Shown here piece by piece: positions 2,797 through 57,154 of a DNA stretch of 64,000 nt. Both the position numbers and the translations under genes were made by a program. Origin of the DNA: Stegostoma tigrinum (taxonomy: Eukaryota); assembly GCF_030684315.1 (NCBI RefSeq), contig NC_081363.1, positions 82,979,678-83,043,677 on the forward strand, read 5' to 3'. Positions within the stretch are counted from its first letter, which is position 1. Every line of letters starts with the position of its first letter. The notes under the pieces were generated by a model that searched no databases, was not told the DNA's origin, and saw only the letters and a list, made by a program, of their open reading frames with translations.

Positions 2797-3059
2797 TCTC
2801 CAGGCCTCACCACACCAAATCTCGCCAGAATTTAAAAGAACAAGTTTTGTGCTCATGGTAGTAAGATCATTCGTGATGGCTACTGAGAAAGAAAGAAGTG
2901 TGAATTGGAGCTCGCAAATCAACTGAATCCTCTTTCTTTTTACGACTGTGGGCATTGAGTAGTTTAAATATTCGTTATTAATAACCTAGGAGCAATGCAC
3001 TATTATGCAATGTTATCTACCAGTCGCTTCAGAACTCACCCAATTGTCAACTGATCTAA

Positions 3060-3199
3060 GAGATAGCAGGAACTGCAGGTGCTGGAGTCAAAGTCAGCAC
3101 AGCATGAAGCTGGAGGAACACAGCAAGCCAGGCAGCATCAGAGGAGCAGGAAAGTTGACGTTTCGGGTCGGGACCCTCTGAATAAGGGTCCATACCCTG
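3060..3199 (-). mobile_element. Miniature PLE tail with short inverted hammerhead segment
   Basis: PLE tail running to tttcgggtcgggaccc, then inverted tctgaataagggtcc; TSD ttgtcaactgatctaa at 3044-3059 and 3200-3215. Confidence 0.82.
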
Positions 3200-6100
3200 T
3201 TGTCAACTGATCTAACTAACGTTAACCCGCAAAGCCATTTCTTTCCCGCAGCTTTTTTTTTGAGAAAACAACTTCAAATTTCTCGGACAGTACTCAGGAC
3301 TGACTGTTAAGTTGGAGACACTACACTCTATAACGAAACAAAAATATTTTTATTTCAGTTGACTGCACAGTCCTTTTCTCGCTCTGATTTGTTTTTAAAT
3401 ATCCACTCGAGGGATATGGATGTTCCTGTCTAGGCCGGCATTTATTGCCCATCACTAACTGTTGTTGAAAAGGTTGTGGCAAGCTGTCTTATTGATTCAT
3501 TGCAGTCCTTGCAATGTAAGGGCGCCCACACTACTGTTAGGAAGGGAGTTCCGAGGTTGTGACCTGGACAGTTGTCGAAACTGCAATCATCAGCAAACCA
3601 CTCCATCTCGGACAGTTTCCTGAAAACAAAAAGTCTTGCAGCCATGCCCTGTGATTTGAACATCAGACCTGAAATAATCACATTGGGTACAGATGTAACC
3701 AGTGGAGAAATTTCCTCATGATTCCCATTTGGTCTGAAAAAGAATCACATTGGACTCGAAATGTTACCCTTGTTTTTCTCTCTATTGATGCTGCCAGAAC
3801 GGCTGAGTTTCTCCAGCACTTCGTGTTTTTTTAGTTATTATTATCTCATTGACTCTAGTTTTGCTGGACAGTCTTGATGCCTCAGACAATGAAATTTTGC
3901 CTTAATGTCAAGGATTGCCACCTTCAGTTCCCCTCTTGAGTTCATCACTTTTGCCCAAGGTTTTGACCAAGGTTGCGTTAAAGTTCGAAGCTTAGTGGAC
4001 CTTGTGCGATCAGAATTTAGCACAACTGAGCAGGTTATAAGTGATGCTTGATACCAATCTCTACAACTTCAATTACTTTACTGATGGGACATCGTATGTC
4101 AGGTATGATTTATCGAGTATTAGTATAATCGGCTGCTCTCTAACTAGAATGTGGGAGACTCGTTCTAACTTTGGTGCAATCATCCTGATGTTAGCAAAGA
4201 GGACTATGCAGGATGACAGGGCCGTGTACGCCAGAGTCATGACATTTTTCTGACATTTCCTAATTAATGTTACTTCAGCTAGTTTTGTTCCTTGTAGCCA
4301 TTAAATACAACTGACCTGTTAGGCCATTTCAGAGCCAACTACATTGTTCTAGAGTCACATGTAGGCAATACTAAACGAAGACAGCAGATTTTCATTCCCA
4401 AAAGGCATTAGTGTGTCAGAAGTCCGTTTTTTACGGCAACAGTCTCATGTTAAAAGTTAAAATAACGTTTAATTTCAGATATACTTCACGGTCTGCAGTG
4501 GTGGGATTTGAACCAAGGTTCCCAGTGTACTAGCATGGGTTTCTGCATTATTTATTCCACTACCAGTACAACAACTCTATCCCTTCCCAGCTGCCAATTT
4601 CTCTGGAACCACAATTGGCGGTTCAGATATTGTGAGGAGACTGCCATCTTGTTTACCAAATTGATGATAGCCAGTGTCTCTATAAGGATAAAATGCATTT
4701 ACTGCCTCTTAATTTAAAATCTGTCGACCCCTCATGGTGGTGCACCTCGTTGATTTTCCTTCTTCACAGCAGAAGGACTTGTGGGAAAGGTGAATAAAGT
4801 TCAAGGTGGGCTGGGGCCAGAAGGTGCTCGTAGGTGGAGGGGGTGTGTGGTAGTACTTGTTGGTGGTTAGACGAACGGCATTGCCGAGAAGCGTTTGACT
4901 CTCTAGCAGTTATGGTAAAATTGTTTGCAGTCTGGACTATGACGATAAGCAAAAGTATGAAAGTATCCTGCATCGGACTTCAGCTGCAGTTGCACCTTAA
5001 TGTGTTGAATCCTCGTCACATCTGCATAAACCAGCATGAGGAATATTGAAGTAGCAGCACATATCGCTGGAATTGTGCAGACTGAACAAATTACATGCGA
5101 TTTCCAGTCACAGTCATTGGATGTGGCAACTCTTTAAGTTCCTGAGACTGTTTAATTAACGGTTCCATGAAAATCTCCTTCATTAAGTGCATTATCCCTT
5201 CCATGGATAAAAATAACCTGAGAAGTCAAGTGTCTGCATCAGCTGTCTTGCATTTTAATAAAACATAGATGCCCATAAAGTTACTTAAAGTAAATACTTT
5301 TCGCTATCCCTGTAAAGAAGAGAACGAGGGGCTAAGCTCTTGACATCGAATATCTGACACATTAGTCACGTTTGCTTGATCATGAATTCAGATGTAGCCT
5401 ATACCAGTGCTTTTGCTAACTAACATGAGGAATAGACATGTCGTAAAGCACATGATCTCAAATATAGGCATTCACACACAAATACACCTTTTTCCTTCTA
5501 CACTTCTTCTATGTTCCTTGGTGACTGATATGGAAAGGCTCAAACTCAAACAAATTAAGTAGTCATTTTATACACTATACTTTGGTTGTTGAATGGCGAA
5601 GCTATAAATGATTTTGATGTAAATGAGCATAGGTGAAGCACATTCTTAAAGCAGAAAAACAATTTACTCGAAAATGTAACTCGATCATTGTTTTTAGTCA
5701 GCTACACTTGTTTTTAGTCAGCGATTATAGTGAACTCTACAAATGAGATAATTAAAGTTCTTAAGATTAAAGTGAACTGTCTGCTGCAGTTTACCTACTG
5801 CCCAAACAGCCAGATCTCATTGGGTTTCTGAATAATTTTCACGTTTTATGAGTTAAGCATTTACTTTCAAGAATTTATAACAACGTGAGTTGACGTGATT
5901 GAAATAAGTAAAACACTTGGAAGAAAGCAAGATAGTAGTTGCCTGGGTGGAGTAATCTAGATTGCAATCACATAATAAGGACTGAGTCCAATTAGAACTG
6001 AGATTAGGAGAAGGTTCTTCACTCAAAAATTCGTACAGCTAGGGAGTTTTCTACCCAGACGGCTGTGGATGTTCTGACATTGAATATGTTCAAAACAGTG

Positions 6101-7689: not shown

Positions 7690-7871
7690 CAGAAGTCACA
7701 TGACGCCAGGTTATAGTACAAAAGGTCTATTTGAAATCAGAAGTTTTCGGAGCGCTGTTCCAGGAACAGCACTCGGAAAGCTTGTAGTTTCAAGTAAACC
7801 TGTTGGGCTACAATCTGGCATCGTGTGACTTCTGACTTTATCCACCTCAGCCCAACACCGGTGCCTCCACA
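7690..7871. mobile_element. Miniature fold-back element of a third PLE family
   Basis: Inverted arms cagaagtcacatgacgccagg...tttcggagcgctgttcc / ggaacagcactcggaaagc...gtgtgacttctg plus a one-sided tail. Related copy at ~9658-9823 contains ctgatgaagggg. Confidence 0.7.
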
Positions 7872-8168
7872 CCTTGGAAGTTAACTAAGAGTTTGGAGCG
7901 ATTCCCCCTTGGTGCATTGATCATGGTATGACTCAAACAGTCACAGTAAGTTTTCCTATGAATCAGTCCTCTTTTAGCATGTCTCATAAATGATTATTTC
8001 CTTTGACCTTCAGTATTCTTGCATCTATCCTGAAAAATGCATGAAACAAAGCATTGGCAGCCTGTCTCCTTTTTTAACAATGCCCAAGTTCTACAAACTA
8101 AAGACTTGCATTTATGTGAGGCTGGATGAACACAGCAGGCCCAGCAGCATCTCAGGAGCACAAACGCT

Positions 8169-8196
8169 GACGTTTCGGGCCTAGACCCTTCATCAG
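8169..8196 (-). ncRNA. Minimal hammerhead ribozyme motif
   Basis: Reverse complement reads CTGATGAAGGGTCTAGGCCCGAAACGTC. Confidence 0.7.
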
Positions 8197-9318
8197 AGAG
8201 GGGGATGGGGTGAGGGTTCTGGAATAAATAGGGAGAGAGGGGGAGGCGGACCCAAGATGGAGAGAAAAGAAGATAGGTGGAGAGGAGAGTATAGGTGGGG
8301 AGGTAGGGAGGGGATAGGTCAGTCCAGGGAAGACGGACAGGTCAAGGAGGTGGGATGAGGTTAGTAGGTAGGAGATGGAGGTGCTCCTTGGGGTGGGAGG
8401 AAGGGATGGGTGAGAGGAAGAACAGGTTAGGGAGGCAGAGTCAGGTTGGACTGGGTTTGGGATGCAGTGGGTGGGGGGGAAGAGCTGGGCTGGTTGTGTG
8501 GTGCAGTGGGGGAAGGGGACGAACTAGGCTGGTTTTGGGGTGCGGTGGGGGAAGGGGAGATTTTGAAGCTGGTGAAGTCCACATTGATACCATTGGGCTG
8601 CAGCATTCCCAAGCAGAATATGAGTTGCTGTTCTTGCAACCTTCGGGTGGCATCATTGTGGCACTGCAGGAGTCCCATGATGGACATGTCATCTAAAGAA
8701 TGGGAGGGGGAGTGGAAATGGTTTGCGACTGGGAGGTGCAGTTGTTTATTGCGAACTGAGTGGAGGTGTTCTGCAAAGCGGTCCCCAAGCCTCTGCTTGG
8801 TTTCCCCAATGTAGAGGAAGCCACACCGGGTACAGTGGATGCAGTATACCCCATTGGCAGATGTGCAGGTGAACCTCTGCTTAATGTGGAAAGTCATCTG
8901 GGGGCCTCGGATAGGGGTGAGGGAGGAGGTGTGGGGGCAAGTGTAGTATTTCCTGCGGTTGCAGGGGAAGGTGCCGGGTGTGGTGGGGTTAGAGGGCAGT
9001 GTGGAGCGAACAAGGGAGTCACGGAGAGAGTGGTCTCTCCGGAAAGCAGACAGGGGTGGAGATGGAAAAATGTCTTGGGTGGTGGGGTCGGATTCTTCCT
9101 CTCACGCATCCCTTCCTCCCAACCCAAGCAGCACCTCCATCTCCTACCTACTAACCTCATCCCACCTCCTTGACCTGTCCGTCATCCCTGGACTGACCTA
9201 TCCCCTCCCGACCTCCCCACCTATACTCTCCTCTCCACCTATCTTCTTTTCTCTCCATCTTCGGTCCGCCTCCCCCCCTCTCCCTATTTATTCCAGAACC
9301 CTCACCCCATCCCCCTCT

Positions 9319-9346
9319 CTGATGAAGGGTCTAGGCCCGAAACGTC
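9319..9346 (+). ncRNA. Minimal type I hammerhead ribozyme motif (PLE-associated)
   Basis: CTGATGA-A-GGGTCTAGGCCC (stem II)-GAAA-CG-TC: conserved core with palindromic ACGT in place of helix III; predicted cleavage after C9346. Helix I is only ~2 bp. Confidence 0.7.
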
Positions 9347-10849
9347 AGCTTTTGTTCTCCTGAGATGCTGCTGGGCCTGCTGTGTTCATCCAGCCTCACA
9401 TTTCGTTATCTTGGATTCTCCAGCATCTGCAGTTCCCATTATCACTTGCATTTATGTGACGGTTTTCACTATTGCAGAATATCACAGTATTCTCTGCAGT
9501 CAAATAATTACCTCTGAAGAAACGCATGTAGGAAACACGGGCAGACATTTTGCAAGCAGCAAAGTTTGGCATATGGGACAAATGGCCTAATATTCCGTTC
9601 GATCATTTTTGTTGAGCCTAAAGTGCTATTTTCAATCTCATACATTCTTCTTGTATGGAGTCAGATGACACCAGGTCATACTCCAACTGGTTACAGACAC
9701 GCCGCCTGATGAAGGGGCAGCACTACAAACACTTGTGATTTCAAATAAACATGTTGGACTATGACCTGGTGTGCGTAACTTTTGGTATTGTTCACTCCAC
9801 TTCAACACTGGCACCTCTACATCAATCTTTTACTTTCACAGAAAGAACAGGTTAGTGTTTGATTTAATGTCAAGAGGTACCTCTGACAGTGTACCACTGT
9901 CTCAAAACTTCCCTGGAGTGTTGTTAGCTTTCTGAGGACAAAATTAATGGCCAATTTCTACGTTAGATGAATCTGGTTTACTATAATATTTGCATGTGGT
10001 ACCCACGGAAAATATCATTAATTCACTAAAATGATTGACCAAATATCTGATGGTTGATCCTATTGTTCAGCATATAGTTTCCCATTGATAATTCATTTCC
10101 TCATACAGCTAGTGGTGGGTGTTAAAGTGTACGCATCAAAAAATGTAACAGCTTGTCATCATCCCTAATTCATTTAAGAATAATGAAATCTGTTGTGCTG
10201 TAATGACAATGTCTACATGCGTCATGCAATTATTGATCGGCTATATAATATGTCCACATGGATTCACACACTTCTCGTATGCAATTCCAGCAGAGCGTCA
10301 TCTTTTATTATTTTAGCTACGACTTTATTTTATGAAATTAGCATTCCTGCACCTAAAATAGCTTTTAGCTTTCAAATTTCTCTGTTGGTATGATCATCTA
10401 AAGTTATAATGTGCCTTCCTCCTCATTTGCTGGTATCTTCATTTTTGCTCTTATCAATTACCCAGTGCCAGTACTTTCTGTCAGTTCTGTATTTCCGCAC
10501 CCAGAGCACAGGCCTGGGCACTTCTGTTCTTGCATATCAATTGCTTAAAAACAAGCTGGCCCATTCATCAGGAAAGCATCATATTCTGCGCGTTTCAATT
10601 GGTTAGTTACAAATGTTTCGGCTGTAATCAGCAAAGCGAGATATTCCGCCCAAGGGACATTTTTGTGATCTAGCATGCTGAGTGTTTGAGTATTTCAGCT
10701 CTGATGGAAGTTGGCAGGGAAAGGTCGACAAGGACGATGAAGGATAGACTACTACAGCCTGCAAAATGATCTATGCTATGTCCGAATCCTGAAATCGAAT
10801 ACTAGAGGATCATGCCAGCCGCGTGTTAAACTTAGGGGCGTGATTAAGA

Positions 10850-11490: not shown

Positions 11491-13737
11491 GCGCCAGCGC
11501 CCCCAAAATTGCTGTCTGCTGCAGCCCCCTGTAGTAAGGAGCAGATTTTCGCAGTGAATGGACACTTCTAGTTTTGCTGCCCTTGTCTGGATTTGAATAC
11601 ACTCCTCAGCGTCGTCATTCTGAGAAGACGTCAAATCGGCGTCAAACCCAACGCTCATGTCTCAAACGTAAAGATTGTCCTGTAGTAGTCCCTGGTAATG
11701 GCTTCAGTGCAGCATTCCTAATGTAGTTGAGCGGGTATCTCTCCAGTACTTCTCGACCAGGAGCTATCAAATACAAGAAGCAGGCAAAGGCGGGGTGGGG
11801 GGCAGGGATTTTGGGCACGCTGGTGATGGGGTACTGTCACCCTCTTCTATCAGACACCATCAAAAGTTGGAAAAACTGCTGTTTTTAATCTTCTCCAACT
11901 TGACCAAGTTATAATATTGTGGCTGGGCAACCTAAATACCTTATTCGTTCAGCAGAGGGGTTGCGGAGGTTGCGGGCGGACGGAGATGGGGATGGGGGAT
12001 GTTGCTGTTCAGAAGCTGCTGCTTCCCCAGGCCTACTCAGTGTAATACCACTTTGGCAATGACAAGTTAATGCAAGCTGTGAAGTTATGGCATGCAAAGA
12101 ATTGCTGAGGCCAGTGGGCCTTCGGAACGTGTGTAACAGCAGCTGAACTGGGAGTTGCTTGCTAATGATCACTGAAAGTGGTGAAAATACCAAGCTTAGT
12201 TAAGTTCGCGATTCCCACACAGCAGAATATGTCAGCAGAGCTGACTTTACAACCAACTAAAATTACAAGGTCAAGCAGCCTTGACCTTCGGACTTAGTAT
12301 AATTAGATTGTTTTATTTATTGAAACGCGAGCTGCTGCCTTGTTTATTTCTCTCTAATCTCAGAAATATACTTCCCTCTACAGCTGGGCTATCTCTTCAT
12401 TTCCATGTGTTTTAATCTTTTAACATTGCACTTGCTTATGTTTTTTTCAAACTGAGAATTAGGAAATTAGTGAACTGAAATGAGGGAATTGAGGAAGCTG
12501 AAGCAACAATAATGTTAGAGTGAAAACATCAGAAACAGTTGGAGGCGGGGCCAGTAGCTGGGTAAATCGAGACACACGTTAATCACTACATCACTCAGAG
12601 ATGTCCTTCAGCGGACGTGGCGAGAGACGCCTAAGTTACACTCACTAACCATAAGACCATAAGACATAGGAGTGGAAGTAAGGCCATTCGGCCCATCGAG
12701 TCCACACCGCTATTTAATCATGGCTGATGGGCATTTCAACTCCACTTACTCGCACTCTCCTCCCAGCCCTTAATTCTTTGCGAGATCAAGAATTTATCAA
12801 TCTCTGCCTTGAAGACATTTAACGTCCCGGCCTCCACGACCTCTCACAATTCATGCTTGGTATATTTAAGGCAGAAATCAATAAACTTGTAAAACATAAA
12901 GAGAAATGAAAATAATGTGGGGGGCGGGGATGAAGACGTTGAGGAAGAAGGCCAGCTATGATTTAGTTAAATGGCAAAAGAGGCTTGGGGTACCAAATAG
13001 TTAACTCCTACGCCTCCCTTTCCTTGTTTCTACGTTCGTACGAATGAACAGTGAGCCTCTAGCAGAGCGCATCACACTGTTTTTGCTACATTGGTCGCAG
13101 CTGGCAACCCAAGTCTTCGTGTTCGCAGTTCATTATCCATATTCACTTGACCACGCGCTGTCATAATATAGATTCCACAGTTTCATTGCCCCTTAATTAT
13201 TACACTGCATTGTTAATGGACCATTGTCTACAACTTAACATTCACACTCAACATTCGACTGTGCGTTCACATTGCACTGATAACTACTCACTCCTGTGAA
13301 CGTAGGAAGTAGGAAAAGGTGTAGGCCACTTGCCCCTTGAGTTTCCTTTACCATTTAACTAATTCATGCTGGCCTTCTTCTTATATAATATTTTCCTGCA
13401 TTATATCCATTTCTCCTGATATTTTAAATTCTAAATATTTGTCAATTTTTCTCTTCAGTATAGCAAATAACTGGACATCCACTTATCTTTGGAATAGAGA
13501 ATTCTAAAGATTTATAACACAGAGATCAATAAATTCCTCCTCATGTCAGCCTATGTATGTATATATTGTCCAGCAATTATTCTGAGATTGTGTCCCTCTC
13601 CCCTAGGCAAGAAAGCATCCTGCATCTATCCCCTCGAGCCTTATAAAAATGTTTTTGCTTCAAAGATATTACCTCTCATTCTTTGAAACTCGAGAGAATA
13701 CAGGCTCAGTCTCCTTAATATTTTCTCATGCATTAAT

Positions 13738-14253
13738 CCACCATTCATGACAAATGACAACACCTTCCAGTTACGAACCACTTCAATCTCTGCCCCCCCC
13801 CCACCCCCAAATCCCTGGACGACATGTCCATCCTGGGCCTCCGAAATTTTCACAATGACACCACCCAGAAACTGAAGGAGCTGTACCTCTCTCAATGTGG
13901 ACTTTACTAGCTTCAAAATCTCCCTACCCCCCGACCTCTTCCCAAGACCAACCCTCCCCCATCCCTGCCTCCCTGACATGTCTATCTTCTCTCCCACCTA
14001 CCTGCTCCTCCCACCGCACTGACCAATCCCCATACTCTGTAGTGTGCATTCACCTATCACCATCCCACCTTCCTTCCCCAGCCCAACCCCCCCATTTATT
14101 TCATACCCCTCTTCCACTCCCCCCTTTTCTAAAGAAGGGTCCCAACCCAAATGGCAACTTTCCTGCTCTTCTGATGCTGCCTGGCCTGTTGTGTTCCTCT
14201 AGCTACACACTGTGTTATCTCATATTCCAGCATCAGCAGTTCTTATGATCTCT
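13738..14253 (+). mobile_element. Penelope-like element 3' fragment
   Basis: Homologous to the GIY-YIG C-terminus (aatgtggactttactagcttcaaaatctcc), C-rich UTR, degenerate hammerhead and tail (cagcatcagcagttcttatgatctct). Confidence 0.8.
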
Positions 14254-17224
14254 CCAGAAGAGTCATAGAAGTTTCGCAGCATAGAAAGATGCCCTTTGGC
14301 CCATTGTATCTTCGTCAGTCATCAAATATCCAATCCCATTTTTGAGCATAGCCTTATATGTTCTGGTATTTCAAGTGTTCATCTAAATGTTCTGAAAATT
14401 AATGAGGATTTCTGTGGCTATTACCCTTTTTGGCACTGCAAATACAAGTCTGGGGGATTTTTTCTCCCTCAAATTCCCTCTAATACTCTTGCTTCTTATC
14501 TTGGCATATTGGAGTTCAGAAATGAATAATACATCATCTAGAAGAAGCCTTGCCACAATATTGTACAGAATGATCAGGATTATGTATATGTATTGAATAG
14601 ACTCTGTCTCCACTTGTCTTTTATTCCTTACCCCATCTCCCCAACCTCAGTTCTGCAGAAAAAGCAATGTTTTCCTAACTATTATCAGCTCTGAAGAAGG
14701 GTCACTGGACCCGAAATTTTAATTCTGGTTTCTCTCCACAGGTGAGGCCAGGCCTGCTGAAATTTTCCATTAATTTATGTTTTTGCTTCTGGTTTCTAGC
14801 ATCCACAGGTTCTTTCAGGTTACTTTGAGTAGGCCTCACATTTTTTCCATCGCATTTTCTATTGCCTTTCAGCAATTGCCAAAAAACTTTATGTACTCAA
14901 GCCCTGCACCGTGGACAGTCAATAATCTTTCATTGAACACTGAAGCTCAAAATTGTCCCTATCCCATGCATTAAATTAAAACATCATCATATGTTAAAAG
15001 GCTTTTTCATTCTTTGCATCTAGATACACTTTTTTTGTTATATCCAGAATCTAAAACTGTAACAGATCTCCCTCCCATCAAAAAATGGTGGGGATTGAAC
15101 ATGGAAGGAGGGGAACACAAAATGCCTCCAACATATCATTATCATATGCACCATTCCTATCATATCTTTCTGGAACACAACAGAACTTTCTTTCAGTGTA
15201 TTTTTCTTTTAATATTTTGCAAAGACCATGTATGTGCCACCTTTGCAACCCAAACTTTCTTCATCAAATTAGTAAAGTCTTAGGTGAAATGAAACAAGTT
15301 GATGTGACAGGAGTTATTTTGCAGGAGTTATACTGCATTGCCAATCTTCAACTCTTGCCTACAGCTTCCATCAAGTAAATAAGGCTATCATTGTGAATAT
15401 TAGTCGACCACAGTCTTCCCTCCAATCAACAGAATAATCTCAGACTTCATCATACTATTTGATATACAAACAAGATGATCCCTTGGCACAGGTCGAATTG
15501 TATTGGGTTGCCTAAGTGGACACCATCTGGAGCTACAACTGAACTGAACTTTGCTCTTTGATATTGGCATCTTCAATGTCATCAAGGTATTGAACACAAA
15601 ATAAGTACAATTGGTTCAAGGTGCTCCTTTCAGCCATGCCTCGCCCCAGGAATCTATCCTAACTATCTTGAGGAATGCTTTGATAGCCCATGTCATGCCT
15701 TTGTTAGTTATGAGAGTTTGAAAATAAAATTCTCTAATGCAACTACAGTTGTCCACAACTTTCTTTCTATTGACTGTTTAATCTTTCTAATGACAGCTCT
15801 TGTTGACTTTGATGATCATATGCCTGCTTGCATTTCATTGGTGAATGGTGGGTCGGGGAAAGATATTTTACCCTAGTTGCACAAAACAAATTCTGATCAC
15901 ATCTGAGTAAATTTTATATACGAACAAGTAGCCTTTTCACCTGGTTCTTTCTTGGGAATTTCCTCTGCATTGGGGCGTGCAGTGGTCCCCACCTTATGAA
16001 CAGTTATGGGTAATATCAACCTTCGGTAGAACGTTGATTGGTCAATCGTCTTGTCCAATCTTTTTTAATGTAACTTATGGAAGTTTATTTTGTATAGAGA
16101 TGAAAACTTGAGTAAAATGTAACATTCTGAGTGTATCATTGCAACCAAAAAGTACAGTGCATCCACCTTTGCAAAATATATTTCAGAGGAAACATTCAAC
16201 TACTTGGGGAAAGTGGATATTGAACCATAGAGCACACTGTTACAATGAGAACGGATCTACATATAGCTATTTATAGGGCTTCCATGCAAAAAGCTCCATT
16301 TGTTTCTTGTTAAAGGCTTATTGTTTGCTTAATGCTACAACTGATTAGACATAGATTGCAAAAGCAAAATACACAAGATTGTATGAGATTGAATTCTGCT
16401 AAAGCTTTAAACTGACCTCAGTGTCATTGTCATTGTCATTGTAATACCGAAACAGGTGAGAAGACGAATTGAAACAAAGTAACACAGTACCAGTGTTTTA
16501 TCCGGTACGTATTCTCTTTAGAGTCAAAAAATAGATAATGTTATTGCAGCACAGCAGTTTACTCACACGGACATATGAGCTTGTACAGTTTTTTTTAGGC
16601 AGTTTATTTATGGCTACCTCAAGGCCAAATTAGGCATCACAACGCACGCAAGGAGACAGCACACACTTCAAAGCGATTTCTGCCTCAAAGCAAATATATT
16701 GCAAGTATTAAGAGAAATTAAAATAAATAATTCTGCTTCTCACCGACGTGTATGACTGTTAACACGTAAATAATTGGATTTGTTTTTGTTTTTGAATGCA
16801 CACTATCTGCACTTTTGTGAATGGGTTTATCCAACTTCACGCAAAGGAAATTATCCAACGTTTGATGAACAACAGGCACAAGGTAGGCAAGCTTTCTCCC
16901 CCGCAATCAGAGCCACATAATTTATAACTGCTCGTGAATGCCCACTGCGTATGTCATTTAAGTTATTAAGGAGGTAGACAAGGATTATTTCAGGCACTGA
17001 CGGATAGCTAAGTTGTTTGAAGGTGAACTTGTTAGTCCTGTTTCAAAACATATATTAACCACTCATAAGTAAGCAACACGCAATTCAATCTGAGCAGAGA
17101 TATAAGAGACATAATGTATAGCCATTGACCTATTAGCTTAATTTGTTCCTTAATGTGGATAATTCATAGGATAGCAATTTTATTCCAATTGTACTAAAAT
17201 GTGTACCAGTTGGCTTAATGTCAA

Positions 17225-44200: not shown

Positions 44201-45847
44201 TTTCTTATGGCCTGAACATTTGAGGCACTTGCGGCTGTGTCAGTCTCATCATTGCAATTACGAGAGAACGCAACATATTTGGATGAAACTCCACCGTATT
44301 TTGACGCTCTTCCCATTGACGAGTACCACAGGCTACTCTGACATGGCCACATCGGTATAATCCATCACCCACAGCACCTGCTAAAATCCTTCCAAGGTAA
44401 AAATGTACGTGACCCCCTTTGGTTGACAGAAGGTTTTTGCGGCAAAAGTGATATTTAGTTATTTCATTTTGGTAAGAAACTGATTATTTATTGATGTACT
44501 GTAGCTGCTAATGATTCTTTTGACTCCTGCCCTTCAGCGACAACCTATGTGGAACTCTCTTGTATGTAATTGTGTCCGTTCCTGCTCTGCTGCTTCTTGG
44601 TCCGTTGTGTCATTTTATACAGTGGCCTGTGCAACCCAGTTGGGCTGGCAGTTAACATCGTACAGTATCCCCTGACATGCGCACTTAAGTAGTGTTGCAG
44701 AACGGCAATTCCTCAGTACCGGTTATTTGTCTAATGCAAGGAATTATCTTAGCTCTCTTCAACTCTTGTGCTGCTCACTGCATGTCAACGCTATTGTCCT
44801 CTTAGCAAATATGAAAATAGCAAACTAATGTGCGCAAATATCAGGAGATTTTTACCATCATGAGATTTCTAAGTACATTTCCAGAGCTGTTCTTTAAAAA
44901 GGAGTTTAAGCAGACATGAAGCAGCATAATCATAAAAACTAATAATTATCGCTAAGATACAAAGTACAGTGACAGCTGTAACAACAGAAAAATCGAGGGA
45001 AAGAGTCCATCATACCATAAACAAAAACCCTTCCTGAGAACTCCAGTCACCGGATCCGAAACGTTAACTTTGATTTCTCATCACAGATGCTGCCACACCT
45101 GCTGAGCTTTTCTACCAACTCCTGTTTTTCTTTCTGATTTACAGCATCCGCCGTTCTTTCGACTTTTAAGAAAATCGAAAGATTTGGAGGCAATGAAGGA
45201 AAGTGTATCTGAGGTGCGAAACCAGACAGTCGCATTCAATGCTGGAGTATTCCCGTGGCATTGTAAGGGCTATGTTTGTTCCTGTTTCTCAACTCTTTTA
45301 ACTTGAGGCTATGGGCATTTTAGAATCGCCAACAGAGGAAGCAGTGCCTTGACATCTTTCATGTAAAGAGCTACTCTCTGAATGTTGTGATTAGGTCTCC
45401 TATTATTCCAGAGAGGAACTTACCATTTTAGGAAATACTCCAGTGAAACATTGTTGAACCTCAGTTAAGGAAAATATAACGTGCTTTTAAGTAAGGGAGT
45501 CAATAATCAATATTGTACTCCAAATGGGATTTCACCCATTCCAAATCCATTCACCTGAAGGTTACCATAGAATGTACACTTGTAATTGATTTTATGTTAA
45601 CTTTTCTGTAATTCATGGAAAAGGCCCCGCAAATTCCATTGAGTAGTACTGCTACTTTTTTGCTTAATTTTTCTTGACCATGCTGCTTTCTCATTGATCC
45701 CACCAAATGGATAATTGCAAAATTTCCTATATTATGCTCAATCTGTATCTTCATACCCAATCACTTAACCATTTTCAGTTCTTCGTGGCCACCTCACAAC
45801 TTTATTTCACCAAGCTTTGTACATTATAAGCATGGAAATTGGACGTA

Positions 45848-46682
45848 CAGATAGTAACAACTGCTGATGCTGGAGTCTGAAATAACACAGTGTGGAGTTG
45901 GAGGAACACTGCAGGCCAGGCAGCATCAGAGGAGTGGGAAAGCTGACGTTTCGAGTCGGGACCCTTCTTCAGAAATGGGGGAGGGGAATGGCGCTCTGAA
46001 ATAAATGGTGGGGGGCGATGTTATCAGGTCGATAGTAGAGCGGATGGGTGGGAGAGAACGACACATCAAGGAGGTGAGGATGAAGTTAGGAAAGGTGATT
46101 GTAGGTAGATAGTGGCGGCGATTGGTCAGTGAGGTGGGAGGACCGGATAGGTGGGAGAGTAAATGGACAGGTCAACGAGGCGGCGATGGGGGTGTGGTGT
46201 GTCTGGTCTTGGGATAAGGTTGGGGGCGGGCAGATTTTGAAGCTAGTAAAGTCCACATTGAGACCATTGGGTTGTAGAGTTCGAAGGCAGAACATGAGAT
46301 CTGTCCCTCTCCGAGGCGGAATATGAGCTGCTGTTCCTCTCCAAAGCGGACTATGAGGTACTGTTTGTCATATTCCACATTGAAAGCCTACAACCCAATG
46401 GTCTCACAGTGGACTTCACTAGCTTCAAAGTCTCCCCACCTTCGACCTCATCCCAAGATCAGAACCCCCCAAACCCCGCCTCATTGACCTGTCCGTCTTT
46501 TCTCGCACCCAGCCGCTCCTCCTACCTCACTGACTAATCCCCACCACTCCCTGTCTACACTCACCTTTACTAGGTTCATCCCCGCCTCCTTGACCTGCCT
46601 GTCTTCTCTCCCATCTATCCGCTTCACTATCTATCTGCTATCACCGTCTCCCATCTCTATTTATTTCAGAGCCTCCTTCCCC
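45848..46682. mobile_element. Older Penelope-like element, inverted two-arm insertion inside a CR1 remnant
   Basis: Minus arm with LQPNGLNVDFTSFKI, 3' UTR and tail to ~46365; plus arm from ~46368 repeats the same segment. Confidence 0.8.
45945..45972 (-). ncRNA. Minimal hammerhead ribozyme motif
   Basis: Reverse complement CTGAAGAAGGGTCCCGACTCGAAACGTC; stem II sequence differs from the younger family but still pairs. Confidence 0.62.
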
Positions 46683-49387
46683 TAAGTCCTTCGTGCAGAG
46701 ACATGGTCTCTAATGCATTTCTTCAATTTCATAGCTCTGATATTTCGATATTGCCGTTGTTTCATTCTCCAACCTTGTTTGTAAATGATTTTTATTCAAT
46801 CATAACACTTATTTTCATTGCTCTGAAAGAATTTGAAGTAGACATAACCTTGTGTATTTAAGAATGTCCTAGTTTAAGCAAGCTCTCCCAATAATCAAAC
46901 TCCTGGAACCCGCTAACATTCTGCCGAATCGGTAGTGCATTCCTTCCAAGGATCTTTCCAATAAATACTTTAAAGCATTTTACTCTAAAATATGCAGAAT
47001 ACTCTAAATATGGCCTAGTCAGGTTTCTGTATCCTTGCAATAAGCGTCGTCCCTCTTGCCCCGCCCAACATTTGGCTACAAAGTCCGTCGTCGATCAGCT
47101 TTAATTTCTGACCATTTTGCACGCTACCACAGTGTTTTAGGCATGTGTGCACGTGAATCCTCAAATCTCTTTGGAGCTCAGCTCTTTCGTTGATGTAAAA
47201 ATCCGTGTATCTATGTGTTACTGCAAAATAGATTAACTTATATTCACTTGAATTGAATTCAGCTACTCCGCACTTCAATGTTGACAGCCCCTCCTAATAT
47301 CATCTTTGCTGTAATTCATTGGTGAGGGGTCTTCATGTCAAGCGGATAGAAAGTTGACGCCAGAAAACAAGGTCGTAGAAGCTTGGATGGAAGTCACAAA
47401 AGAAGTCTGCTCCCTTGAGGTCAATGAAGGTAGCTGAAAGCAGTGTAATAAAAGGCTGAATGGTCTCTTGCGATCGGAAAGCGTGAGTATGGAATAATTC
47501 TAGCGATGGAATTCCATTCAGGGTGTATGGGTGTGAAAAGTACATATAATGGTGAGACAACGCCCAGACTTAAAACAAATACACCACGTTTAACGGTGCT
47601 GGGTAATTTTAGAGATAGACAGAGACTGGGCTCCGAGAACAGCAAAATTTGTCAATTTCGAAATACCATAAGAAAATGGTTGCAGCAAGAATGGATATGT
47701 TGGCTACCAGAGTGAACGCATAACACTTCCTCTAAAAAAACAGGGTCATAAAGCCGATAAGAGAGCAAGGCCTGGAGGAGCAGCTCAAACCCTGGTCATT
47801 CAACTTCACCACACTGAATGAGGAAGCTCTACAGCGAAGGAACAACTAACGCTATATGGCCATTGGTCACCGAGACGCTGCGTGATACCTTCGAGGTGAT
47901 GAAAATGTGGAGCCACAGACGTCTCCGGGAAAGATTGCACTGCGTAGGTGGATCGAAATTGGGAAACGGAGAGTGGATAGGAGCGTTGATGGATTGATTT
48001 TTTTTATTTTAGCATTCGGAGAGGGATGAATGTCTCAAGTTTGAAGAGATTGGTGTTTAAGTTCCAGGCAGCATTGGTTTGTGCGTATAGGTGTATAGGT
48101 TCATGTATGCGTTTTTGAGGGCTGAGTGGTGTAGCAATGGTGCATCTCTAAATGAATTTCTCTTAGTACGGAGACATTTAGAGCCACATTATTTAAGATT
48201 AGAGGAAGAGCATTCTTTGTAAACGTTCAGTAGTTATATGGGCACTTACGTAAACAGGTCTAATTTGCAGGACAAAATAAACTAGGTTCTGAGATTACAG
48301 CGGACAATTTAAGCAAAGAATGACCACAGACGAGATGGTGCGAATGACCTCTTTCTGCGTTGCAGAATTTTCTGATGTATTGATTTTTTCACGTCGGCGA
48401 GTAAAAATGGATGCTTTTTTATGGCGCATAAATACTTCTGAGTTTTGTACCTTTCCAGTGCTTTTCCGGTGCATCATCAGGTCGCAGGAGAGCGCGAGAA
48501 TGAGACAGAAAGTCGCAGTCACTCTCAGATCCACGGGCGAATAAATTGCAACGTTACAATTTTAATTCTTCGAGGCTTATTATCCATTTTCGCGCGTTGA
48601 AAGTAACATGCAGTTATCAGAAGATAATTGAGTCCGTTGTACACGATATATTTGTTTTATTCTATCTGTGCATTCATTTGTCACTCAGAAATAGAATAAT
48701 TGTTTCACGGCCACAATAACACATTATTGACCAGGCTCAGCTTAACCTTAATTCCGAAATTCAATACAACATTTCAACCGTTCGGCGTCAGATGCAGATG
48801 TTCTATGCATTCACACTTTGTAGTAGAATGTACGACAGAGACGTGAATTGTTTCGAACCACATACTTGTCAAAACTCTTACATTCTATGTCTAGGCAATT
48901 TGCAGTTTAGGGGCTATTTGTAGGAGCTGACCGATATGAATGAACATTGACCAATGGTGTCCCTGGCTCTTTTGCTATCTGTTCTGCGTTAGTCGACAAC
49001 TTTGCGGCCAAAGTTTTCAGTTGGCTGACGTAATTGTTGCAATGAGCATCTACGGTGGCTTCAACTGATCTCTGTGCGGCGAGTATACAATCACACTATT
49101 GCACGCGAACGGTATTTGACGGCAAATTTCGCCAATTAAATATGAATACTAAGTGCACAAACAGTCCAATTACTTCTGCACCAAGTCGACGGTTCCCAGC
49201 AGTGCGAATATATCCATTAAATTCAACTGTCGGGCAATGTCAGCGTTCAATGGTTTTCACAGGGAGAAACAGCAGGTTATGTGTCAACTCGTCTCCAGGA
49301 TTTAAACCGATATCTCTTATCATGACATATATTTACCTGTTTATGTTGTGTTCCTAAATATTGTTTGAAAACTATTTCAAATAGAAG

Positions 49388-50335: not shown

Positions 50336-50812
50336 CTGACAAGAAGAAGAGAGAAATTATTCACCCACGTTGACGGTTGACCCTGATAGCACGCTGGTAA
50401 GCTATTTGACCACGGCACTAAGCGAGCTCCAGCTGAAATCCGGGATTCGCTCACATTGAGCGTTAGGATAACTATGTGTCGAAAAGGCACTAACACAAAT
50501 GGTCTGACATTGATCAAAATGACCTGGAACGTTAAATGCGAACTTATAAACAAGGAAGTCTGTTCTGTTTTAAAGCTCGCGGGGAAGAAAGTTCATCTCA
50601 TTTTCCTCCAACCACCTTTCACAAAAAAGAATGAACACCGGGAAGTTGCTTTTCAACTTGAGTAGATGGCAACGCCACTGAGTCAAAAGAAGTCCCTCTC
50701 TGCTACTAGATATTACGAAATGGTGATTATCGTCGGGATTTGAACAATCATAGTTGCGCGGAAAGGGATAAGAAATCGTTCATTCCACGAAAAAAATGTA
50801 GAATTTCAAACT

Positions 50813-51023
50813 GTGATCAGAGATAATGGGAACTGCAGATGCTGGAGAATCCAAGATAACAAAATGTGTAGCTGGATGAACACAGCAGGCCGAGCAGCAT
50901 CTCAGGAGCACAAAAGCTGACGTTTCGGGCCTACATGAAGGGTCTAGGCCCGAAACGTCAGCTTTTGTGCTCCTGAGACGCTGCTTGGCCTGCTGTGTTC
51001 ATCCATCTACACACTTTGTTATC
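50813..51023. mobile_element. Miniature fold-back PLE (tail plus inverted tail) in intron 2 of paralog C
   Basis: Near-perfect ~90 bp inverted arms of the PLE 3' end; TSD tagaatttcaaact at 50799-50812 and 51024-51037. Confidence 0.88.
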
Positions 51024-51720
51024 TAGAATTTCAAACTTGCGCGTTAGTAGGGAATAGTATTAAATAAAATCACTAGTCACCCATCGATTAACCTCACCAC
51101 AAAGAACAATAGTTGCCTTATAATTCGTAGACTGAAATGACGCAGGAGCCCGGTTGATTTGAAGGACCGACTTTTTGGGCCAGTGGGGTTGCCACTTGCT
51201 CATGTGTAAAACCAGCTTTCCGGCGTTCAATCCTTTCGAGAATAGTTTTTGGAGCTGATCAAGACAGATTTTCTTGTCTCTGCTCTTTAAAATAAACCAG
51301 AATTACTTTTATTAATCGATCTAATGTTACGTTCCCTTGAAGAGTTCCTGATTTGAAGCAATTTCTGCGCATTTATGCCACTCTGGGTGCCTTGATGGTG
51401 CGTTATGTTTTCCAATTCCCTTGACAGAACTACACAGTTAATTCCATCTCACTGCTACTGCTTCGGAGTCCTTAAAAAATTGACTGTTTCAAACATATAT
51501 TCTGTAGTGCAAGTGCACACTGAAGTCACCATTCAATCTGTGATTACCAGCTTTTCAAGTGATATACTATGGAAAGGGAGTGAATTAAAATGCTCCTAAT
51601 ATCTCTTAAATGATTTTGTCAATTTTTCCTGAAGATGCGTCTTTTTGTTGACAACGGTTCTGCTGGAAGAAGCAGCTCATCCCAATCTACTCGATCAAGA
51701 CATGTGCATGATTTTAAAGA

Positions 51721-51860
51721 TGGTAGGAACTGCAGATGCTGGACAATCTGAGATAGCAAGGTCCTAACCCTTGATCTAGGCCCGAAACATCAGCTTTCCT
51801 GCTCCTCTGATGCTGCTTCGCCTGCTGTGTTCATCCAGCTCTACAACTTGTTATCTCTTA
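51721..51860. mobile_element. Miniature fold-back PLE remnant
   Basis: Minus tail (ggtaggaactgcagatgctgg) joined to plus segment tctaggcccgaaacatcagc...; flanking direct repeat tgattttaaaga at 51709-51720 and 51865-51876. Confidence 0.78.
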
Positions 51861-52972
51861 TGCTTGATTTTAAAGACGTTTTTGGATCTCGTAATGTTCA
51901 CGGCTGTAGGGAAAACTGTTACTCTTTATCTAACCTTTCTGAAGTTTGTCATCTCTGATAACCTCACCCTGCACTATCTAACGCCATGATATTTTGTTGC
52001 TAAAACGCAGGACACGGAAATAGACAAAATCCTCGAACTGTGTGAATAATGTGTGAATTAAAAACGTTTACCTTAGCTCCTTTCCTACTGTACCTAATGC
52101 CTCTATTCCCAAAACCAATCATCCCGTGTGGATCTTATTCCATTAGCTTCACAAATTGTTTGGCCTGAATCGCATATTATTTGAATATATAGTTACATGC
52201 CTGTGCGATCCGCGGACCTCTCCCCTGAAAATTCTAAATTTAGCTAATATCACCTGAGATTTCAATTGACTGGAGTAATTCATTTTCATAGAAAGGCCCC
52301 AAATGTTAAGACTTTGGTTTGAGTGTTCAGATATTCTGGGTACATTGAGTGGATGTTATCAAGAATGCAAGATCAGTAAAACATCAGTTTCTGACGGGAC
52401 ACGGATTTTTCCAATGATGATCATTATAAATCAGCATTCCCTGTGAATGGGCATCACGCAGTTACAACCATTAAAACCTTTGGCTATCATCTGCATTGAG
52501 AATGCATTGCTTTACTACCATTCTTAACTCCAATTTACAGGCTCAACGCGTTCGATGACCCGAAAAAACAACGTAGCTGCTGATATTTGGAATTTATTTT
52601 ATATTCTGCATCAGTGTTGTTCTTGTGGTGTCACTTATATGCGTGTGTTACAAAGTCAGGAACTGTCATCTATCAAATGGGGCAATTAGCCAGGGTCAAT
52701 GTTAAATACGTAGAAGCGAATGGGCAGGTTGTTTGACGTTAGTGTGATGAAAATGCCACTCTGAAACTTGCCATGGGTGAGGGGAGGAGCGGGGTAAGGA
52801 GGTTCACTGCCATTAAATGATCAGCTATAAAATTCTTCTTCATCAGCACCCTCCAACACACACACGCACACAAGCGCGCGCACGCCTCTCTAACATATCT
52901 CCCCTCGTTCACAGAACTTTCGTTTATTGCCTGCATTCAACAAAATCTTAAATCGTTACAAGCCATCTTTCA

Positions 52973-53131
<159 letters not shown>

Positions 53132-53873: not shown

Positions 53874-53932
53874 CCAGTCATTGTACAACGTGACGCTTTT
53901 GTTTAGATAAAATCGGATTTGTCATCAGCATC

Positions 53933-56079
53933 AGAGTTAATGGGAACGGCAGATGCTGGAGAATCCAAGATAACAAAGTGTGGAGCTGGATGAACACAGC
54001 TGGCCAAACAGCATCTCAGGAGCACAAAAGCTGACGTTTCGGGCCTAGACCCTTCGTCAGAGAGGGGGACGGGGAGAGGGTTCTGGAATAATTAGGGAGA
54101 GAGGGGGAGGCGGACCCAAGATGGAGAGAAAAGAAGATAGGTGGAGAGGAGATTATAGGTGGGGAGGTAGGGAGGGGATAGGTCAGTCCAGGGAAGTCGG
54201 ACAGGTCAAGGAGGTGGGATGAGGTTAGTAGGTAGGAAATGGAGGTGCGGCTTGAGGTGGGAGGGAGGGATAGGTGAGAGGAAGAACAGGTTAGCGAGGC
54301 GGGGACGAGCTGGGCTGGTTTTGGGACGCAGTGCGGGGAGGGGACGAACTGGGCTGGCTTTGGGATGCGGTGGGGGAGAGGGAGATTTTGAAGCTTGTGA
54401 AGTCCACATTGATACCATTCGGCTGCAGGGTTCCCAAACGGAATATCAGTTGCTGTTCCTGCAACCTTCGGGTGGCATCATTGTGGCACTGCAGGAGGCC
54501 CATGATGGACATGTCGTCTAAGGAATGGGAGGGGGAGTTAAAATGGTTCGCGACTGGGAGGTGCAGTTGTCTATTGCGAACCGAGCGGAGGTGTTCTGCG
54601 AAGCGGTCCCCAAGCCTCCGCTTGGATTCCCCAATGTAGAGGAAGCCACACCGGGTACAGTGGATGCAGTATACTACATTGGCAGATGTGCAGGTGAACA
54701 TCTGCTTAATGTGGAAAGTCATCTTGGGGCCGGCGATGGGGGTGAGGGAGGAGGTGTGGGGGCAACTCTAGCACTTGCTGTGTTTGCAGGGGAAGGTGCC
54801 GGGTGTGGTGGGGTTGGAGGGGAGTGTGGAGCGGACAAGGGAGTCATGGAAAGATTCCATCCCCTATTCGCAATTCCTTCGCCTCCGCTGCATCTGCTCC
54901 CTGGATGAGGCATTCCACTCCTGCACATCCCAGATGTCCGCCTTCTTCAAGAACCGCAACTCCCCACCCCACCCCCACCCCCACCGCAGTGGTCGAGAAC
55001 GCCCTTGACCGTGTCTCCCGCATTTCCCACAACTCATCCCTCACACCTCGCCCCCGCAATAACCGCCCTAAGAGAATCCTCCTCGTCCTCACATACCACC
55101 CCACCAACTTCCGTATACAACGCATCATCATCCGACACTTCCGCCATCTACAATCCGACCCCACAACCCAAGACATTTTTCCAACCCCACCCTTGTCTGC
55201 CTTCTGGCGAGACCACTCTCTCCGTGACTCCCTTGTCCGTTCCACACTCCCCTCCAACCCCACCACACCCGGCACCTTCCCCTGCAACCGCAGCAAGTGC
55301 TACACTTACCCCCACACCTCCTCCCTCACCCCCATCCCAGGCCCCAAGATGACTTACCGTATTAAGCAGATGTTCACCTGCACATCTGCCAATGTGGTAT
55401 ACTGTATCCATTGTACCCGGTGTGGCTTCCTCTACATTGGGGAATCCAAGCGGAGGCTTGGGGACCGCTTCGCAGAACACCTCCGCTCGGTTCGCAATAG
55501 ACAACTGCACCTCCCAGTCGCGAACCATTTTAACTCCCCCTCCCATTCCTTAGACGACATGTCCATCATGGGCCTCCTGCAGTGCCACAATGATGCCACC
55601 CGAAGGTTGCAGGAACAGCAACTGATATTCCGTTTGGGAACCCTGCAGCCCAATGGCATCAATGTGGACTTTACAAGCTTCAAAATCTCCCCCTCCCCCA
55701 CCGTATCCCAAAACCAGCCCAGTTCATCCCCTCCCCCCACTGCATTCCAAAACCAGCCCAGCTCTTCCCAGCCTCCCTAACCTGTTCTTCCTCTCATCTA
55801 TCCCCCCTCCCACCTCAAGCCGCACCTCCATTTCCCACCTCCCAACCTCATCCCGCCTCCTTTACCTGTCCGTCCTCCCTGGACGGACCTATCCCCACCT
55901 ACACTCTCCTCTCCACCTATCTTCTCCTCTATCCATCTTCGGTCCGCCTCCCCCTCTCTCCCTATTTATTTCAGAGCCCTCTCCCCATCCCCCTCTCTGA
56001 TGTAGGGTCTAGGCCCGAAACGTCAGCTTTTGTGCTCCTGAAATGTTGCTGGGCCTGCTGTGTTCATCCAGCTCCACAC
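53933..56079. mobile_element. Penelope-like element (Neptune-type), two 5'-truncated copies joined head-to-head, in intron 1 of paralog C
   Basis: Plus arm (~54850-56079) encodes DSIPYSQFLRLRCICS (RT C-terminal region), a frameshift, a Cys linker PCNRSKCYT and a GIY-YIG domain (VVYCIHCTRCGFLYIGESKRRLGDRFAEH). Minus arm (53933-~54850) is the inverted 3' part. TSD tttgtcatcagcatc at 53918-53932 and 56080-56094. Confidence 0.92.
54033..54060 (-). ncRNA. Minimal hammerhead ribozyme motif, sense to paralog C pre-mRNA
   Basis: Reverse complement CTGACGAAGGGTCTAGGCCCGAAACGTC (CUGANGA core intact). The partner on the plus arm (55997-56024) has CTGATGT, i.e. A9 is mutated. Confidence 0.68.
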
Positions 56080-57154
56080 TTTGTCATCAGCATCCTTGGA
56101 TTCTGTAGGTCATAAGAGCCGAGCTTCCTTCTGAAGTGGTTGCTCAGGGCATATCACCAGAGGTTGGTCGTGAGACAGCATCGGTCAGCAACATCGGTGT
56201 TATAAAGGGAAACGTGGAGCCTGAGAGCAAGAAAAAAAAACACCGCAAGCCGACATTCGTGGCCTCAAGTCATTTAACCAGTACTAAGAGGCTCTAACAT
56301 TTATTGCCGGCAAGGCTTGTCGGGAATAGCAGGTTCTTCAATTTAAAATATGGGTGAGAAATTCATGCACAGGATAGATAAGCGCATTGTGGCGGGGTTT
56401 TAATCGCAACGGGGAGCATTAGAAAGCAGATTGGTGGGCAGCAGATTCCACTACTGCTCGCCCATTTTGCGCTATTCAGGCGTTTCACAGTCCAGTTGGT
56501 GTCAAGGGCCCCCGGGGTGATAATTCCACAACCGATAATTGCCAGCAATCTACAGGATGGCAGGTCCCCTGGTCTCATTAGGAGGCTGAAGCTTTAGCAG
56601 GTAGAATCCAAAGGAGGATACGTATGGGAATGATGGCGAGAGCATGGCTGGAGATGGAGATAAGAAGCACGGCCGGCTTTCAGCCACACCCACCCCTCCC
56701 CTCCAACCAAACCTCCACTCCACCCCTCGCTCCTCACGCCACCCATCTCTTTTCCGTTGCTTGATCAGCTATGACCTTAGGAAGGGTCCACGGGAACCCT
56801 GCAAGAACACATGGTGGGGTTTGCTGGCCGTGCTGCTCCCCACATGGCGAGCCAGCGCCCATTGATCGCCAATTTTAGGTGCTCCAATTGCCGTGAATGC
56901 TTCTTCCCGCATCGCTGTGGACGTAGGAAAATGACAATCCCCAGCCGAGACCATACCTTCCTCGAACCCTGCACCCGCCCGAACACACCACGCCGAAAAG
57001 GCACTGGATTCCGGAAAACAGTACACATTGCTGAACTCTTTACAAATCGAAAAATTCTGAGAAATTTAAAAAGGGATAGCAAAGCCTTAAAATTAACTCG
57101 ACATAAAAGACGACAGACCGGCTTTTCCTAGATCTGACAAGTTATTGAACTTAC

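Follow-up and report, generated by a model that had tools for sequence, protein, structure and literature searches.

The window analysed here, a 64,000-nt stretch of the Stegostoma tigrinum genome (3.2 Gb; NC_081363.1:82,979,678-83,043,677, forward strand), contains long and short copies of Penelope-like elements (PLEs) with hammerhead ribozyme cores. Self-comparison separated their tails into F1 (young 1A and older 1B, or F1B), F2 and F3, matching the three sequence families of a preliminary description of the window. Among young 1A copies the 5′ ends concentrate at the 5′ edge of the ribozyme, where an additional G is common, and the short copies are probably run-off complementary DNAs (cDNAs) from the capped 5′ end of the element's RNA.

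The Penelope origin proposed earlier agrees with a GIY-YIG remnant in the window (8430-9101, minus strand; Pfam E 2.9e-4, 21.5 bits, slightly below the 22.6 cut-off) and with the hammerhead cores. A second GIY-YIG match was found at locus L115 (E 0.006), reverse transcriptase (RT)-type motifs were recognised by eye upstream of GIY-YIG, and the nearest Atlas clusters were HTH_animal/GIY-YIG (score 0.97). Pfam RVT gave no match in the elements, and no intact full open reading frame (ORF) was recovered. The order of RT and C-terminal GIY-YIG, the minimal type I hammerhead in a terminal repeat with palindromic stem III, and the optional 30-40-nt tail at one end, with direct or inverted repeats and a target-site duplication (TSD), are all as in endonuclease-positive (EN+) PLEs. 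Judged by their sequence, the long copies are EN+ Penelope-like elements, because they carry the GIY-YIG remnant, the RT-type motifs and the minimal hammerhead. In the predicted hammerhead the core motif, stem II and palindromic stem III are all present; stem I of 1A is weak (2 bp by inspection) and the 1A core does not fold as a monomer hammerhead. An Rfam search returned no match at E<=1, presumably as minimal hammerhead variants are not modelled there. A three-Cys motif precedes GIY-YIG; it belongs to the definition of the Neptune clade and is also common to Nematis (PMC8557442, in part). Because of the Cys-rich linker, the family probably belongs to another clade than Poseidon_Ac, and may be Neptune-like.

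Short copies stop at the 5′ edge of the ribozyme

Breakpoints are given in nt relative to the C of CUGA (positive values upstream) or as d, counted in nt upstream from a tail anchor of 38 nt (window 9357-9394). On this scale the predicted ribozyme cut lies at d 10, stem II spans d 19-31, the C of CUGA is d 38 and the base 4 nt before CUGA is d 42. From 26,547 exact genome-wide matches to the anchor the first 100 1A arms were taken, chosen on the 3′ tail alone, and their 5′ ends were mapped onto real long copies. The breakpoint distribution rests on these 100 arms and on single-position counts. Totals below are whole-genome exact matches, and base tallies were made by eye among the first 100 matches listed.

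Stops were found at d 0-9 in five arms, d 10 in one, d 11-18 in none, d 19-30 in three, d 31-37 in 11, d 38-45 in 25, d 46-100 in four, d 101-200 in five and d 201-300 in six; the other 40 arms were longer, ends at d 319-358 being partly artefacts of a 39-bp tandem repeat. At 0-7 nt 5′ of CUGA, 25 stops in 533 nt at risk give 4.7% per nt, a rate 29-fold above that elsewhere (24 stops in 15,082 nt; p 6e-24) and 15-fold above that on the 3′ side (nine stops in 2,933 nt; p 6e-14), so that the clustering at the motif noticed in the preliminary description holds against smooth truncation. The peak lies at the 5′ edge of the ribozyme and not in its interior: 11/100 arms stop in the first 7 nt of the core, 3/100 in stem II and 0/100 between stem II and the cut site, and the upstream side of the peak is a sharp edge. 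In the whole genome, the base 8 nt before an intact core departs from the consensus in 22,519 copies, which appears in keeping with about one third of arms stopping.

In the older families, sampled as random neighbours and counted less exactly than 1A since alignments overshoot, arms ending within -7 to +8 of CUGA make up 39/93 in F2, 24/52 in F1B and 6/19 in F3; 16 further F2 arms end at +9 to +30, mostly through such overshoot, and about nine are long. An edge 3-5 nt before CUGA recurs in F2 and F1B despite different upstream sequence. This fixed 5′ end common to many copies (in 1A the modal edge at 4 nt before CUGA) is what a non-autonomous family with master copies, like short interspersed elements (SINEs), would show. 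A lineage of their own with diagnostic changes is not seen for the short 1A copies: haplotype A is carried by 28/36 short and 38/55 long arms, and short and long arms share haplotypes and tail extensions.

An added G marks the edge

At the base beyond the modal stop (d 42), 8,457 copies genome-wide have a base other than C and 70,437 have C; among those without C, substitutions in long copies account for about 770. Roughly 10% of arms stop at that one base, compared with about 0.1-0.2% per nt upstream. The base after the modal stop is G in 69, T in 26 and A in 5 of the 100 matches listed. Because C-rich partner arms could lend the G, the first 70 matches were examined singly, giving seven long copies and 63 junctions (G 45, T 15, A 3). 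The junction G was untemplated in 26 of the 45, templated by the partner in 18 and without donor in one. G accounts for 26/36 untemplated junctions, 8/9 single added bases and 14/24 junctions outside fold-backs, and where coding is equal it is found in 19/23 at the modal position versus 12/38 at neighbouring stops (p 1.6e-4). In an older T-rich variant the G lies one base further out in 4/4 rows. Genome-wide G counts cover 1A and F2, and at the F2 modal edge, 3 nt before CUGA, G 16, T 13 and C 3 were found (n=32 among matches listed of 2,023).

At the predicted cut site, where the RNA end would be uncapped, G is much rarer (19/100 versus 69/100 at the edge, among matches listed; p 9e-13), and its absence there therefore serves as an internal control for reading the edge G as a copied cap. 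The edge bases fit initiator-type motifs in all families, TCT for F1A and the initiator (Inr) for F2 and F1B, to which pyrimidine runs match easily. For L1, PMC11702581 interprets an extra G at the 5′ junction as a copy of the cap. In D. virilis an internal promoter is described that starts Penelope transcription within the repeat (PMC2377424, in part), with the start at nt 371, well upstream of the ribozyme and its intron (416-491; PMC2377424 and PMC4209133).

Other sources of the G or of the edge were considered and rejected. G junctions occur on several haplotypes and only 4/49 G matches are long copies, against a subfamily variant, and long copies have no AG at the edge that could act as splice acceptor. 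A retrovirus-like first-strand jump from the cap to the 3′ repeat was set aside as unsupported, since long copies show no retained +1 G. The four long copies with an edge G (L155, L157, L269 and L273) all have one upstream variant, and represent either a small subfamily or a retained cap base.

Fold-backs are integrations of two cDNAs

The 3′ ends are bimodal, all 100 arms ending at one of two sites about 34 nt apart. For Poseidon_Ac from Anolis, the parts of PMC11167929 available describe two internal RT start sites in vitro, extension of both target strands and a predicted dimer; by analogy, the two 3′ ends of 1A arms would be these two start sites. Inverted neighbours within 4 kb numbered 90, of which 32 were dropped and 58 kept, 39 with arms filling the gap and 19, less sure, censored by alignment length. 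A long tail is paired with a short tail in 49/58, and either arm may extend further 5′. The head-to-head arms are flanked by a TSD of 8-17 bp (mode 13-15) in 30/39, in agreement with the inverted structure described earlier. Arms differ at a biallelic G/T site in 15/36 and at several haplotype sites in 5/39. Because of the TSDs, the pairing of long with short tails and the allele differences between arms, each fold-back is one integration of two cDNAs, often from two RNAs, and this evidence for two templates speaks against self-priming and against a master element.

The two arms of a pair tend to agree in length: both are short in 31 pairs and both long in 20, and 7 pairs are mixed (p 1e-8). 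One repeat may hold both RNAs, or loading of short and of full-length RNAs may take place in separate episodes. Tail extensions of at least 6 nt showed no difference between transcripts of solo repeats and the 5′ ends of full-length ones (4/28 versus 4/27, p 0.2). In one mini fold-back (L107) both arms stop at d 34, with about 105 nt between them seemingly from the RT coding region. Young 1A copies lie inside older PLE minis, within ribozyme or tail, at L056, L058, L120 and L127; these insertions may reflect target preference.

A minor class ends at the predicted cut site

With the cut placed by the hammerhead numbering of PMC4209133 (available in part), a base other than C precedes it in 5,149 matches genome-wide (A 53, T 28, G 19 among 100 listed). 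Among these 100 are 11 perfect fold-backs that overlap on a 4-nt palindrome at the cut site; these 22 of 100 rows extrapolate to an estimated ~560 loci. At a control position 3 nt downstream of the cut (3,168 matches) the bases are substitution-like (T 62, G 20, A 18) and the 100 matches listed include no such pair, while a control palindrome 5 nt upstream gave 809 matches and one pair. The excess of the cut-site over the control palindrome is 51-fold per Mb (p 6e-8), the control containing a CpG that lowers its count somewhat. The 11 pairs have matching arms and fall in three haplotypes, with a TSD of at least 11 bp in 10 and long plus short tails in 10, and cut-site ends anneal without an added base. 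A further 29 cut-site rows comprise eight perfect fold-backs, 14 other junctions (four ambiguously near the site), two deletions reaching the site and five substitutions. If the family has ~115,000 anchors, the class is estimated at roughly 2-3% of arms.

The simplest reading of this class is that cleaved RNA served as template; RT may instead have paused at the fold's 3′ foot. Such motifs are reported to cleave poorly in vitro and to need dimers or protein (PMC4209133 and PMC11167929, both in part). The earlier statement that the templates were not cut is correct for the main class, which keeps the whole core, and fails for the minor class, which ends exactly at the predicted cut site. Cut-site arms at L227-L246 and L257-L266 carry the T allele in 39/42 events, versus a background of about 77% (p 0.007). 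Long copies at L248 and L265 have deletions here, one removing 2 nt at the predicted cut site and the other the stretch between the CUGA box and that site; both may be religation scars.

Tail-to-body copies and repeated deletion units

Copies in which the tail runs into the 5′ body gave 365 matches, and the first 30 loci, corresponding to 28 insertions, were examined. Most are internally deleted units, commonly of 300-340 nt (~330). The junction of body and 3′ end is private to the insertion and yet repeated there, in tandem in five (L171, L185, L192, L195 and L196) and on both arms in six; deleted units with a private junction repeated in one of these ways were recorded at L171, L174, L180, L185, L187, L190, L192, L195 and L196 (all G000:C1). 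Because RT passed the edge on these units, their templates may have been circular or multimeric and retrozyme-like. L189 is of the presumed capped type, the body being joined via G to d 42. The tandem hammerhead units typical of retrozymes not based on long terminal repeats (non-LTR retrozymes) are absent from the window minis, which are inverted or single, and occur only in this side class elsewhere (5/28 insertions) and in one 208-bp array. In the array (G000:C2:58043048-58044746) the 1A tail recurs every 208 bp in at least nine tandem units, as in a retrozyme-like satellite.

Elements within the window

Ten of the 11 breakpoints in the preliminary list lie in or at the hammerhead motif (Table 1). 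The other, 14686, is rejected as a breakpoint because the copy aligns about 93 nt further upstream with long F2 copies. The list also left out four long copies with distant breakpoints (8114-9446, 13737-14253, 45849-46683 and 53919-56094). A TSD of 11-16 bp was found at six window elements; eight others tested have no convincing TSD.

Table 1 Penelope-like elements and hammerhead cores in the window.
Feature	Position	Strand	Listed earlier as	Details
Hammerhead cores	9319-9342; 8173-8196; 54037-54060; 45949-45972; 14691-14716	+; -; -; -; +		
1A reference repeat end	9315..9446	+		Putative RNA start 9315; core 9319-9342; cut predicted at 9346/9347; tails end at ~9411 (short) and ~9446 (long)
1B mini element	3044..3215			- arm 3060-3177, ending 7 nt inside core at listed breakpoint 3176 (-7); 22-nt inverted + piece 3178-3199 from CUGA; 16-bp TSD 3044-3059 / 3200-3215
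Old F2 arm	3733..3830	+	3731	Starts 1 nt before CUGA (+1); no convincing TSD
F3 fold-back	7690..7871		~7760	Junction in stem II loop; doubtful TSD (9 bp, 1 mismatch)
Long 1A fold-back	8104..9459	both arms		GIY-YIG remnant and short tail on - arm (8114-9094), long tail on + arm (9093-9446); flanked by 16-bp TSD; ribozyme distant from the breakpoints
F3 element	9659..9821		~9700	Short inverted tail piece; + arm from 5′ edge of core (about +1)
Long old F1B copy	13737..14253	+		Runs past ribozyme
Long F2 copy	14598..14821	+	14686	14686 is not its end
F2 fold-back	18400..18603		~18540	- arm 18407-18534, short + piece from ~18541; both arms end near 5′ edge of motif; 11-bp TSD
F2 arm	40223..40298	-	~40300	Ends in 3′ strand of stem II (-18)
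F2 arm	43956..44078	-		Ends 2 nt inside CUGA (-2), the listed breakpoint 44078
F2 element	45027..45169		~45040	+ arm from ~45045 (-10), preceded by 17-nt inverted piece starting at +4
Long F1B fold-back	45849..46683			
1A mini fold-back	50799..51037		50933	- arm with long tail, ending in stem II loop (-13); + arm with short tail, starting 3 nt inside CUGA (-3); 14-bp TSD 50799-50812 / 51024-51037
F1 mini element	51705..51876		~51775	Inverted long-tail piece 51718-51759; + arm 51775-51856, starting in stem II loop (-12); 16-bp TSD with 1 mismatch
Long 1A fold-back	53918..56094			Both arms with ORF remnants; left tail long, right tail short; TSD of 15 bp

Tail-only fragments of F1B and F2 at 40768-40832 and 53250-53291 end well 3′ of the ribozyme. 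Other repeats in the window are a 565-bp direct repeat (25135-25699 / 27317-27881; 99.6% identity, 1.6 kb apart, no TG..CA ends seen), which may be a recent duplication, an LTR-like pair or an assembly effect, and an identical 42-bp direct repeat (37184-37225 / 37748-37789, 564 bp apart). A 156-codon frame at 34986-35456 (minus strand) resembles by eye the remnant of a reverse transcriptase of a long interspersed element (LINE).

Proposed origin of the short copies and alternatives

The short copies are probably run-off cDNAs from the capped 5′ end of the element's RNA (probability about 0.7). Transcription would start about 4 nt before the hammerhead CUGA, and the G points to a capped transcript. 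The PLE enzyme would nick both target strands about 14 bp apart, and two cDNAs would begin internally, one at each end of the ~34-nt tail. Where the tail used lies near the RNA 5′ end, RT would meet the cap after about 120-150 nt and add C opposite it; two cDNAs, usually of different RNAs, would then be joined head to head with trimming of a few nt or by microhomology, and trimming together with small stem II palindromes would leave the stops inside the core. About one third of young arms would arise by this route, with two minor templates besides: RNA presumably cut at the ribozyme site, and RNA passing the edge that may be circular or multimeric.

Several observations weigh against this account. 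Eighteen of the 45 junction Gs are explainable by a C-rich partner arm, the F2 excess of G is modest (16/32 at the modal and 5/11 at the adjoining position), and among matches listed long copies have G in 21/100 at the edge versus 16/100 one base up (p 0.47). The 100-arm sample covers one allele in the first 7.3 Mb of one contig, and the coupling of arm lengths is unexplained by two independently drawn RNAs alone. Tail-to-body copies, among which templates with the 5′ end must be represented, stop at d 31-44 in 2/18 at risk versus 36/91 (p 0.03), which contradicts the simple model that every RNA starts 4 nt before CUGA; an extra class of circular or multimeric templates is therefore needed. 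A wider and tentative proposal, less likely than not, is that insertions in this one genome record three PLE RNA forms (a capped transcript starting with the hammerhead, a ribozyme-cut product and religated ~330-nt circles), and that RT-EN, acting as a dimer with two RNAs loaded, starts synthesis at both target ends from the two tail sites and fuses the cDNAs. Non-autonomous elements may also be mobilised in trans, via short capped transcripts from solo repeats.

In every family, and irrespective of the upstream sequence, the edge follows the beginning of stem I at 3-5 nt ahead of CUGA. This would also suit an RNA 5′ end left by a 5′-3′ exonuclease that trims longer RNA and is halted at the ribozyme fold or a bound protein, with RT adding C at any end; exonuclease-blocking RNA folds exist. 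This alternative is unlikely, since cut-site ends lack the G (19/100) and anneal with no extra base, so that C addition is not general, and since the weak 2-bp stem I of 1A belongs to a core without a monomer hammerhead fold. The ribozyme fold as a preferred RT stop, put forward in the preliminary description, or a protein on the upstream C-rich tract, might instead stall RT and trigger a template switch; in favour are the 14/100 arms with an end in the core or in stem II, the palindromes of stem II at some junctions (window 50933, L083), and the position of the cut-site class, likewise at the fold's 3′ foot. A stall predicts a pile-up on the 3′ side, however, where RT meets the fold. The peak is found only past the fold, none of the 100 arms stops from stem II to the cut site, the upstream edge is hard and the G is position-specific, and F2, which has no C-rich tract, shows the same edge, making this reading improbable.

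A single strand that primes itself (snap-back), the mechanism suggested for PLEs of rotifers (PMC3846280, in part), would account for head-to-head palindromes and for arms that match in haplotype or junction in the cut-site class and the deletion-unit loci. In the main class, however, arms differ in allele in 15/36 or in haplotype in 5/39, and the short-tail arm often reaches further 5′, impossible for a copy of the long-tail arm; self-priming is accordingly considered very improbable. Amplification of master mini-elements, one or a few in number and each with its fixed junction, also suggested earlier, could explain why some junction 8-mers recur and why the perfect cut-site fold-back reaches its estimated number of loci, and yet is scarcely credible: when junction recurrence was checked, junctions mostly differed and recurrent ones lay on palindromes or microhomology, outer ends are always at the two RT start sites beside a private TSD, arms often carry different alleles, and even the cut-site fold-backs occur in three haplotypes, with their TSD of at least 11 bp in 10/11. 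Least probable of all is an artefact in which homology ends at a conserved motif because upstream sequence has diverged, which holds for one of the 11 listed sites (14686) and is refuted for 1A, where 55/100 young arms align through the region at about 90% or more.

Relation to known systems and significance

According to the parts of PMC8557442, PMC3846280 and PMC2377424 available, EN+ PLEs have inverted pseudo-LTRs and an optional 30-40-bp tail. The present elements share with them RT followed by GIY-YIG, a hammerhead in the repeat, an inverted 5′-truncated copy, a one-sided tail and a TSD, and inverted truncated PLEs with one tail and a hammerhead are already known (PMC8557442). Those accounts describe variable truncation, whereas here one third of arms end at a fixed G-marked edge and arm alleles indicate two templates. 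As in the available description of Poseidon_Ac (PMC11167929), two RT start sites bound the tail, both target strands are extended and ribozyme cleavage is not needed; no read ending at the cut site was found there, whereas here a genomic class ends at that site.

The junction G from the cap, the second-primed inversion and the 12-18-bp TSD described for full-length LINE-1 insertions (PMC11702581, in part) find likenesses here. LINE-1 primes on poly(A) and its pieces are different parts of one RNA in that account; unlike these, both arms here are copies of one and the same stretch, begun at fixed internal sites and often on two RNAs. Deletion units of ~300-340 nt repeated within an insertion fit non-LTR retrozymes, described as PLE-derived and hammerhead-bearing (PMC7229834 and bioRxiv 10.64898/2026.07.22.740005, both in part); retrozymes are tandem monomers, whereas the minis here are inverted pairs or single arms of 100-250 bp. 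The short copies also recall the minus-strand strong-stop DNA of LTR elements, for which RT starts from a tRNA primer about 100-200 nt from the cap and runs off. They differ from it in lacking the tRNA primer, in that a jump to the 3′ repeat has left no trace, and in that the product integrates directly.

No paper listed in searches of open-licence literature reported a fixed G-marked edge, evidence for two templates or a cut-site class in PLE copies, which is a weak absence. PLE integration, the one-sided tail with inverted repeats, and cutting in vivo are named as open questions in the available parts of PMC11167929, PMC4209133 and PMC3846280. Statistics of the junctions in some 80,000 young copies locate RNA ends with single-nucleotide resolution and count two templates per event, and the genome keeps a fossil record of the probable RNA start and, less often, of the predicted self-cut site of a PLE. 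A large share of its short inverted repeats would accordingly be PLE by-products, not miniature inverted-repeat transposable elements (MITEs) or SINEs. If insertions do record three RNA forms, the cut-site class would be in-vivo evidence for cleavage by minimal hammerheads, one mechanism would account for the tail, for the inverted pseudo-LTR and for how retrozymes arise, and minis that keep the start site could be transcribed again and spread in trans.

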